Made by a program: the position numbers and the translations under genes | Notes under the pieces: model-generated | Seen by the model: the letters and a program-made list of their open reading frames with translations, nothing else | The model's database searches: none | What the model was told of the DNA's origin: nothing | DNA from: Escherichia coli | GTDB lineage: Bacteria; Pseudomonadota; Gammaproteobacteria; Enterobacterales; Enterobacteriaceae | Strand: one strand, 5' to 3' | Length of the DNA stretch: 35,115 nucleotides | Assembly: GCF_003334765.1 (NCBI RefSeq) | Contig: NZ_QOWT01000038.1 | Shown: piece by piece, positions 29,324-29,569 of the stretch | Numbering within the stretch: the first letter of the stretch is position 1 | Layout of the letters: each line of letters opens with the position of its first letter

Positions 29324-29569
29324 CTACGTAATCAACCTGATTTGCCGAATCACGGCCATCGGCGATGATAGCCCCCGTAATGCGTGGTCCTTATTTCCGA
29401 TAAGTTTACTTGAGTCTTTAGCTTCCCATTTCAGCCCACTCTCCCCTGTGTGGGCTTTTTTCATTGGTCTGCCCCATCCTGAATAGCCAAACAATGGCAA
29501 TGTTCCACTTTGCAGGGATGATAATAAGGGGATCTGATTCAGAAGAGTTTTGAAAAGTTGGACCGCCAT
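29324..29569 (-). CDS. yahM: small hypothetical protein (81 aa)
   Basis: ORF 29324..29599; the conventional K-12 annotation starts at MAVQLFKTLL; no recognisable domain; an intrinsic-terminator-like hairpin for the opposite strand lies inside it (see findings). Confidence 0.5.
   Translation of the reverse strand: MAVQLFKTLLNQIPLLSSLQSGTLPLFGYSGWGRPMKKAHTGESGLKWEAKDSSKLIGNKDHALRGLSSPMAVIRQIRLIT
29434..29461 (+). terminator. Rho-independent terminator candidate downstream of yahN
   Basis: GC-rich stem AGCCCAC / GTGGGCT with a 10-nt loop, followed immediately by TTTTTT; about 125 bp after the yahN stop. Confidence 0.6.

Follow-up and report, generated by a model that had tools for sequence, protein, structure and literature searches.

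Does the small gene yahM of Escherichia coli encode a protein, or is its reading frame a consequence of how two opposing transcripts meet? The question is raised by a stretch of 35,115 nucleotides (contig NZ_QOWT01000038.1 of assembly GCF_003334765.1; the whole stretch is called the window), in which the annotated yahM open reading frame (ORF; 29324-29569 on the minus strand, 81 aa, ATG at 29569) runs towards yahN and overlies a hairpin that is followed by a run of T residues on the yahN strand. A reading of the sequence, referred to here as the original prediction, had taken this hairpin for the terminator of yahN and had left two explanations for yahM, either a real small protein whose coding sequence also carries the opposite-strand terminator, or an over-annotated ORF in what is the 3' untranslated region (UTR) of yahN. 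In our analysis it is likely that the hairpin is the yahN terminator within a convergent overlap, and that the yahM ORF is a by-product of this overlap and probably not a functional conserved protein.

The terminator-like hairpin, delimited by sequence, fold, rarity, and conservation, occupies 29433-29461 of the plus strand together with its T-run. The stem pairs AGCCCAC (29433-29439) with GTGGGCT (29450-29456), giving seven base pairs, five of them G-C, and it closes a loop of 10 nt, TCTCCCCTGT (29440-29449). Six T residues follow at 29456-29461, the first of which pairs with A29433. The hairpin and T-run had thus been recognised properly in the original prediction, but the start given there, 29434, is one base late. 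The distance of about 125 bp from the yahN stop was accurate, since the stop codon ends at 29307 and the stem begins after a further 125 nt, in which the plus strand has no ORF of note. The folding energy of the plus-strand RNA hairpin is -13.7 kcal/mol (z = -3.55), and none of 200 shuffled sequences was equally stable. We also ran a custom scan that asked for a perfect 7-bp stem with at least four G-C pairs, a loop of 3-10 nt, and at least five T in the next six bases. On both strands of the 35-kb window it found two sites, compared to a mean of 0.27 in dinucleotide shuffles, so that finding one on the right strand and no more than about 150 nt from a given stop codon is well beyond chance. 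The only other site in the window that satisfied this strict scan is at 6487-6510 on the plus strand, where GTTGCGCGCACAGTACAGCGCAAC is followed by TTATTT. The built-in terminator scan returned no call at the yahN hairpin; it overlooked it because its loop maximum is 8 nt, while this loop has 10 nt.

The same bases do encode the middle of yahM on the other strand, as had been claimed: the minus-strand codons ATG AAA AAA GCC CAC ACA GGG GAG AGT GGG CTG AAA (29464-29429) translate to MKKAHTGESGLK, residues 36-47. In this direction the sequence past the stem reads GAAAUGGG, and the continuation of the stem, GAAATGGG, provides no U-tract either. Since the U-tract is on the plus strand only, the hairpin is terminator-like in the yahN direction only, which rules out a bidirectional terminator. 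An identity as a repetitive extragenic palindromic (REP) element or bacterial interspersed mosaic element (BIME) was likewise ruled out, as there is no resemblance. An Rfam search at the hairpin returned only a generic terminator-shaped match (a Betaproteobacteria toxic small RNA, E = 0.64) and noise.

Conservation within the genus outlines the same boundaries. For the comparison, which was anchored on YahN orthologues with one genome per species, orthologues were found in Escherichia, Citrobacter, Salmonella, and Edwardsiella; in the latter three genera no yahM-like or hairpin-like sequence lies downstream of yahN. Three relatives were compared to the window sequence block by block, namely the representative of a divergent Escherichia species (L009), the E. 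albertii type strain (L010), and Escherichia sp. E1V33 (L008). The third codon positions of yahN, taken as neutral, are identical in 66, 61, and 66% of cases, respectively. Directly downstream, the 3' UTR of yahN (29308-29432, plus strand), with the C-terminal half of the yahM ORF on its opposite strand, retains 93% identity in L009 and 86% in E. albertii, and the hairpin with its T-run is identical at 29/29 positions in L009 and at 27/29 (93%) in E. albertii; E1V33 has no recognisable homology to either block. Both base changes in the E. albertii hairpin fall into the loop and leave the stem identical. Beyond the T-run the picture changes. The spacer 29462-29558, which corresponds to the middle and N-terminal part of the yahM ORF, drops to 85% in L009, 48% in E. 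albertii (with 26 gap columns), and 42% in E1V33. It is followed by a tRNA-like element (29559-29639, minus strand) with 81/81 identical positions in all three, by a leader (29640-29721) with 88, 85, and 80% identity, and by the block that holds a promoter (29722-29760) with 82-92% identity across Escherichia. In bins of 20 nt the E. albertii sequence is identical at 18-19/20 positions up to 29460 and at 5/20 in the first bin past it; over 29461-29560 the bins range from 5/20 to 12/20, over 29561-29640 they reach 20/20, and further on they lie at 15-19/20. Hence two conserved units face each other, one ending at the T-run and the other at the CCA of the tRNA-like element, and the edge at the T-run is what a transcript end would be expected to leave. 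An 81-nt segment with the hairpin at its centre is identical in 2,059 of 5,174 E. coli records, and one of equal length in the spacer is identical in 1,528 of 5,115 (30%). The hairpin variants have T-runs of five to six residues and predicted stabilities between -7.3 and -13.7 kcal/mol. A C-to-T change in a B2-like strain keeps a G-U pair; this single G-C to G-U change was seen in the stems of the relatives, and no double compensatory changes were found.

By its form, its rarity, its retention in E. coli, L009, and E. albertii, and the conservation edge at the T-run, the hairpin is therefore most likely the intrinsic (Rho-independent) terminator of yahN that the original prediction had proposed, and an ordinary one, and RNA polymerase would be expected to stop there. 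Two findings weigh against this view. The hairpin is absent in two Escherichia lineages, E1V33 and MOD1-EC7003 (L032, representative of an Escherichia species), so that yahN can manage without it. Moreover, no yahN-sense 3' end near position 345512 (minus strand) of NC_000913.3 is present in the curated Term-seq lists for LB and M63 media (Adams et al. 2021; PMC7815308). It may be that yahN is too weakly expressed in LB and M63 to yield 3' ends. Both findings would suit a chance inverted repeat without function. We regard this as most improbable: only 0.27 sites are expected per 70 kb of strand, the stem is identical where neutral sites have diverged by 35-40%, and conservation breaks off precisely at the T-run. 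As to the two lineages themselves, both the hairpin and the tRNA-like element are deleted in MOD1-EC7003 (L032:3669-3750), while in E1V33 (L008:761-930) about 165 nt of unrelated DNA replace the yahN 3' UTR and the hairpin, with no obvious terminator there.

The strength of conservation upstream of the stem raises another explanation. With 86-93% identity against a neutral level of 61-66%, the block 29308-29432 exceeds the need of a bare terminator, and a promoter-like site with an extended -10 element lies in the 3' end of yahN (29231-29258, plus strand). The hairpin and the whole of 29308-29461 could thus form a regulatory RNA module, either a small RNA (sRNA) derived from the yahN 3' UTR with an Hfq-type terminator, or a structure for protection or processing of the antisense RNA, whose Rho-terminated form ends downstream of the hairpin. 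The Term-seq lists of Adams et al. hold no 3' end at the hairpin on either strand, Rfam offered nothing beyond the generic match mentioned above, and the minus strand is devoid of a U-tract. We therefore consider such a module quite unlikely, and the ordinary yahN terminator remains the preferred identity of the hairpin.

The opposite strand of this region carries a transcription unit of its own, and its promoter, transcript start, Rho dependence, and overlap with the yahN transcript are from the literature. A sigma-70 promoter for the yahM strand is located at 29755-29728 (minus strand), with TTGACA and CATAAT separated by 16 nt and 11 of 12 positions matching the consensus. Its -10 element ends 7 nt upstream of 29721, the base at which the cloning primer for the "yahM 5' UTR" of Adams et al. 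(2021; PMC7815308) begins. From this start a leader of 82 nt (29640-29721) with a 10-bp hairpin (29651-29678) leads to the tRNA-like element. A Reg-seq preprint (10.1101/2025.05.13.653802) confirmed the promoter and the start and identified integration host factor (IHF) as a repressor. The strong promoter and the mapped start imply that the yahM strand is not silent and that the region is a convergent overlap. In this respect the second explanation of the original prediction stands in part: the sequence downstream of yahN is indeed its 3' UTR, but it is not the 3' UTR alone.

Term-seq places an RNA 3' end of this strand at 345390(+) of NC_000913.3, which is 29583 (minus strand) in the window (PMC7815308, Supplementary files 1 and 3); the flank printed for this site matches the window and so confirms the coordinate mapping. 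The position falls within the T-arm of the tRNA-like element and precedes the yahM ATG by 14 nt. Further on, bicyclomycin data from the same study assign an "internal yahM" Rho region to 345585(+), equivalent to window position 29388 at coarse resolution, with a score of 6.23 and p = 3e-33 (PMC7815308, Supplementary file 2). The authors made a fusion of the 5' UTR and ORF to test Rho dependence, and in their main text a fusion called "yhaM" is among those with Rho dependence. Their table of strains and oligonucleotides (Supplementary file 4), by contrast, has only a yahM fusion, with primers that match this locus; "yhaM" is probably a slip of the gene name for yahM. In agreement with a convergent overlap, yahM-yahN is among the 165 convergent excludons of MG1655 listed by ExcludonFinder and was seen in at least 50% of 58 RNA-seq samples (PMC12288877). 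The Rho region at 29388 lies past the hairpin, and the two RNAs would be complementary over at least about 74 nt (29388-29461). Just beyond the tRNA-like element, the minus-strand stretch 29502-29561 is C-rich and G-poor (30% C, 10% G); its C/G ratio of 3.0 is the maximum along the yahM-strand transcript, which makes it a plausible candidate for the Rho utilization (rut) site where Rho would load.

Whether this transcript is translated is a separate matter. Rho termination inside an ORF usually signals a poorly translated RNA, and here it is reported within the yahM ORF. The protein itself has a narrow distribution: a search of 5.8 billion proteins gave 61 clusters, all from Escherichia or Shigella and none with a Pfam domain, and neither NCBIfam nor PHROG matches were found, in line with the earlier statement that YahM has no recognisable domain. 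The variant proteins in these clusters alternate among the reading frames of one and the same DNA. Conservation of the frame across Escherichia had been suggested as a check, and it turned out to be poor. In loci of good quality with an intact yahN, the ORF that starts at the yahM ATG spans 11 codons in L009, 31 unrelated codons in E. albertii, 11 codons in an O157-type strain (L038, Q12stop), 45 and 49 codons in two strains without yahL (L043 and L044, frameshifted at the hairpin or T-run), and 50 codons in a further E. coli strain (L047, frameshifted). B2-like strains are among the lineages in which yahM is broken and yahN intact. The prokaryotic genome annotation pipeline (PGAP) flags two of these short loci as "frameshifted". 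The conserved block 29308-29432 carries 1-nt insertions or deletions among the relatives, and these break the yahM frame. Frameshifted YahM variants from five metagenome or low-coverage assemblies (L036, L037, L046, L048, and L049) were dropped from this evidence, since yahN is broken there too and sequencing error is likely.

The substitution pattern agrees with the broken frames. Among 12 good E. coli sequences the yahM frame outside the hairpin has 23 substitutions, of which 4 are synonymous (17%), 18 nonsynonymous, and 1 nonsense, while in yahN 14 of 20 are synonymous (70%) and 6 nonsynonymous. The codon-usage score of yahM (-0.125) is intermediate and does not decide the matter by itself; it is below that of all in-frame windows of long genes (0.36 ± 0.14).

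There are also observations that weigh in favour of a protein. The frame is intact at 81 codons in many E. coli lineages, in our set the K-12-like sequence, L003, L007, L039-L042, and L045. The codon-usage score exceeds that of 99.6% of off-frame windows and comes near the value of the genuine small gene yahO (-0.07). A Shine-Dalgarno (SD)-like GAGG stands 5 nt before the ATG, the promoter upstream is strong and supported by experiments, and induction of yahM mRNA on contact with epithelial cells was reported for Shiga toxin-producing E. coli (STEC). Hence YahM might be a real, young, E. coli-restricted small protein encoded over the opposite-strand yahN terminator, and the lineages with a broken frame would have lost it. 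We consider this unlikely. An intact frame is missing from O157, B2-like strains, E. albertii, and L009 alike, although yahN is intact there, the few synonymous changes point away from selection on a protein, and what is conserved in the ORF is exactly what it shares with the tRNA-like element and the yahN 3' UTR, the part that belongs to yahM only being unconstrained. In addition, the predicted fold of the leader and tRNA-like element pairs the yahM AUG in the acceptor stem; the GAGG lies in the T-loop, is likewise predicted to be base-paired, and is separated from the ATG by the 3' strand of the T-stem. The yahM ORF spans the tRNA-like element, the spacer, and the antisense of the yahN 3' UTR, and would be a by-product of this arrangement. 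From the comparisons made here, yahM is probably not a functional conserved protein and would go untranslated; the annotation is probably an artefact placed on a transcription unit that is real but non-coding. Of the two options in the original prediction, over-annotation is thus favoured by the broken frames, the excess of nonsynonymous changes, the narrow distribution, and Rho termination.

A second ORF on this strand should be mentioned. It comprises 60 codons (29539-29721, minus strand), its ATG is located exactly at the mapped start 29721, and it crosses the tRNA-like element; it could represent a leaderless mRNA. PGAP annotates it as "hypothetical protein" WP_437438054.1 in some genomes and as "frameshifted" in others, and a single nucleotide (29691) is deleted from it in L007 and L045. 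A PHROG search with yahM, yahL, and this leader ORF gave no match to a phage protein family. A prophage remnant extending beyond the tRNA-like element was considered and is unsupported, since neither yahM, yahL, nor the leader ORF has homology to phage proteins, and YahM has none to NCBIfam families.

What, then, is the element that contributes the start of yahM? The 81 nt at 29559-29639 (minus strand) were recognised by an ARAGORN call, by homology to the "argN" tRNA of lambdoid phages, and by their conservation. The ARAGORN call is forced to Ser(GGA). The acceptor, D, and T arms are present, and the 3' acceptor strand, ...cgATGGCGGTCCA, holds both the yahM ATG at 29569 and the CCA. The anticodon arm consists of a 7-bp stem and a 6-nt loop, and the 7-nt anticodon loop of a standard cloverleaf is not present. 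The Rfam tRNA model RF00005 (gathering threshold 29 bits) gave no match at E <= 10 in a search of 191 nt. Homology to the middle tRNA of phage ileZ-argN-argO clusters is clear, with 77-86% identity and E values down to 4e-17; it spans the acceptor, D, and T arms and ends exactly at the CCA. These clusters are located between the Q/methyltransferase genes and the stx/lysis genes and occur in phiP27, mEp460, TL-2011c, PhiR49_2, YeP1, and a phage-like plasmid. The phage argN family has a consensus cloverleaf fold, and some of its members are normal tRNAs, such as Arg(TCG) of PhiR49_2 with 56 bits in Rfam. Others, in phiP27, mEp460, and the plasmid, are degenerate but of similar length; annotators skipped them or labelled them tRNA-OTHER, and the copy in the window belongs to this degenerate type.

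The degenerate copies in phages and plasmid (about 81 nt; L004:2501-2582, L050:about 405-490, and L002:3001-3081) sit between normal genes for tRNA-Ile/Met(CAT) and tRNA-Arg(TCT). ARAGORN does not call them, and the phiP27 copy is not called by the Rfam tRNA model either. The persistence of the degenerate form suggests that it may have a role in phages too. In PhiR49_2 a homologue of the sRNA STnc100 (140 bits) is found just downstream of the tRNA cluster (L005:2752-2951).

The homology to phages is confined to this element: in a phage search with 29308-29981, an 81-89 nt match to the tRNA-like sequence was the only one, and the hairpin, spacer, leader, and promoter had none. An exact search for the window-type anticodon arm gave no match in 2.9 million viral contigs, so that a circulating phage copy is an unlikely source of the identity across species. 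Of 5,171 E. coli records, 4,822 (93%) agree with the window at all 81 nt, and a change in the O157-type strain, A29572G, turns a G-U pair of the T-stem into G-C. None of the 25 RefSeq rows among the matches listed has a tRNA annotation at the element, and a literature search found no paper that ties yahM or yahL to a tRNA-like element. The element is thus unannotated, phage-derived, and strongly conserved; it is newly described here and was not part of the original prediction. As a tentative proposal, which we regard as possible rather than probable, it could be a domesticated, non-decoding tRNA-like RNA gene under strong purifying selection that is transcribed from its own IHF-repressed sigma-70 promoter, acts in antisense control of the YahN amino-acid exporter or as a tRNA mimic, and has been misannotated as yahM.

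Combining the anatomy of the locus, the tRNA-like homology, the conservation pattern, and the broken frames, all of which are observed, with the published transcription data, we propose the following arrangement. Transcription of yahN would end at the hairpin and U-tract (29433-29461), leaving a conserved 3' UTR of about 154 nt. The convergent RNA would start at 29721 from the sigma-70 promoter (29755-29728), carry the leader hairpin (29678-29651) and then the tRNA-like descendant of argN (29639-29559), expose the C-rich tract, and pass the yahN terminator on the antisense strand before Rho terminates it near 29388. The ATG and the SD-like GAGG of yahM would then be parts of the acceptor stem and T-arm of the tRNA-like element, the middle of the ORF an unconstrained spacer, and its C-terminal half the reverse complement of the yahN 3' UTR. 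As in an excludon, the overlap may lower the expression of yahN.

The surroundings of the overlap are those of E. coli K-12. The window contains the K-12-type prpR-yahO-yahN-yahM-yahL region in the orientation opposite to the reference, and the 751-bp stretch 29250-30000 was found in 5,173 of 5,426 complete E. coli genomes. According to the ORF list and the RefSeq annotation of the identical K-12-like region, yahN (28636-29307 including the stop, plus strand) encodes a transporter of the LysE family with 223 aa; prpR (26519-28117, plus strand) was placed from the ORF list and the annotation of the K-12-like region, and yahO lies between prpR and yahN on the minus strand. Just downstream of prpR, 28078-28151 (minus strand) gives a sub-threshold Rfam match to naRNA4 (28.6 bits, E = 0.021). 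Since naRNA4 is a nucleoid-associated RNA derived from REP elements, this match is probably a REP element. On the far side, yahL (29982-30797, minus strand; ORF list and RefSeq annotation) is polymorphic for presence: in L003, L043, and L044 the match stops near 29968 and yahK is directly next. Within yahL, at what we take to be about 30537 of the window from the older K-12 numbering, lies a peak of sigma factor binding. In a genomic SELEX study (systematic evolution of ligands by exponential enrichment), the minor sigma factors for heat shock, flagella, and extracytoplasmic functions all three gave a strong peak at the old K-12 coordinate 343660, which the authors attributed to yahM because it is the gene downstream (PMC5493296).

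For annotation the consequences are practical, as both K-12 and thousands of RefSeq genomes list yahM as a protein, and it is counted among the uncharacterised genes of the "y-ome". The terminator is the ordinary part of the locus: terminators inside a convergent neighbour are common in E. coli, and yahM-yahN is already listed as an excludon. The unexpected and interesting part is the tRNA-like element. Should it be functional, a phage tRNA would have become a non-decoding RNA of the chromosome, and the element would offer a hypothesis for the product of the "yahM" promoter known from the Reg-seq and Term-seq work.

Among known systems, the convergent excludons of MG1655 are the closest to the yahM-yahN arrangement. 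Predicted terminators overlap the neighbouring gene in 146 of the 165 cases (PMC12288877), and here as well a GC-rich stem with a U-tract lies past the stop codon inside the opposed neighbour; the membership of yahM-yahN in this group comes from overlapping transcripts recorded in the literature. The difference is that the neighbour is probably a Rho-terminated RNA containing a tRNA-like element rather than a protein gene. Bidirectional intrinsic terminators share with this locus the single hairpin between two convergent units, but here the U-tract is restricted to the plus strand and the minus-strand transcript is reportedly terminated by Rho further on. The conserved 3' UTR of yahN, which ends in its own terminator and U-tail, is reminiscent of sRNAs of the DapZ, MicL, and CpxQ types, which derive from 3' UTRs; this is a resemblance only. 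Like the phantom ORFs of E. coli K-12, yahM is short, domain-free, and limited to one genus, with broken frames and no synonymous excess, but it differs from these in that its locus is transcribed from a strong, regulated promoter. Finally, compared to the middle tRNA of the phage ileZ-argN-argO clusters, the element in the window is nearly identical in acceptor stem, D-arm, T-arm, and CCA; its length of 81 nt is also that of the degenerate copies in phiP27 and the plasmid, and mEp460 comes close to it. Unlike its phage relatives, it is chromosomal and solitary, has neither ileZ, argO, nor phage genes at its flanks, and possesses a sigma-70 promoter of its own.

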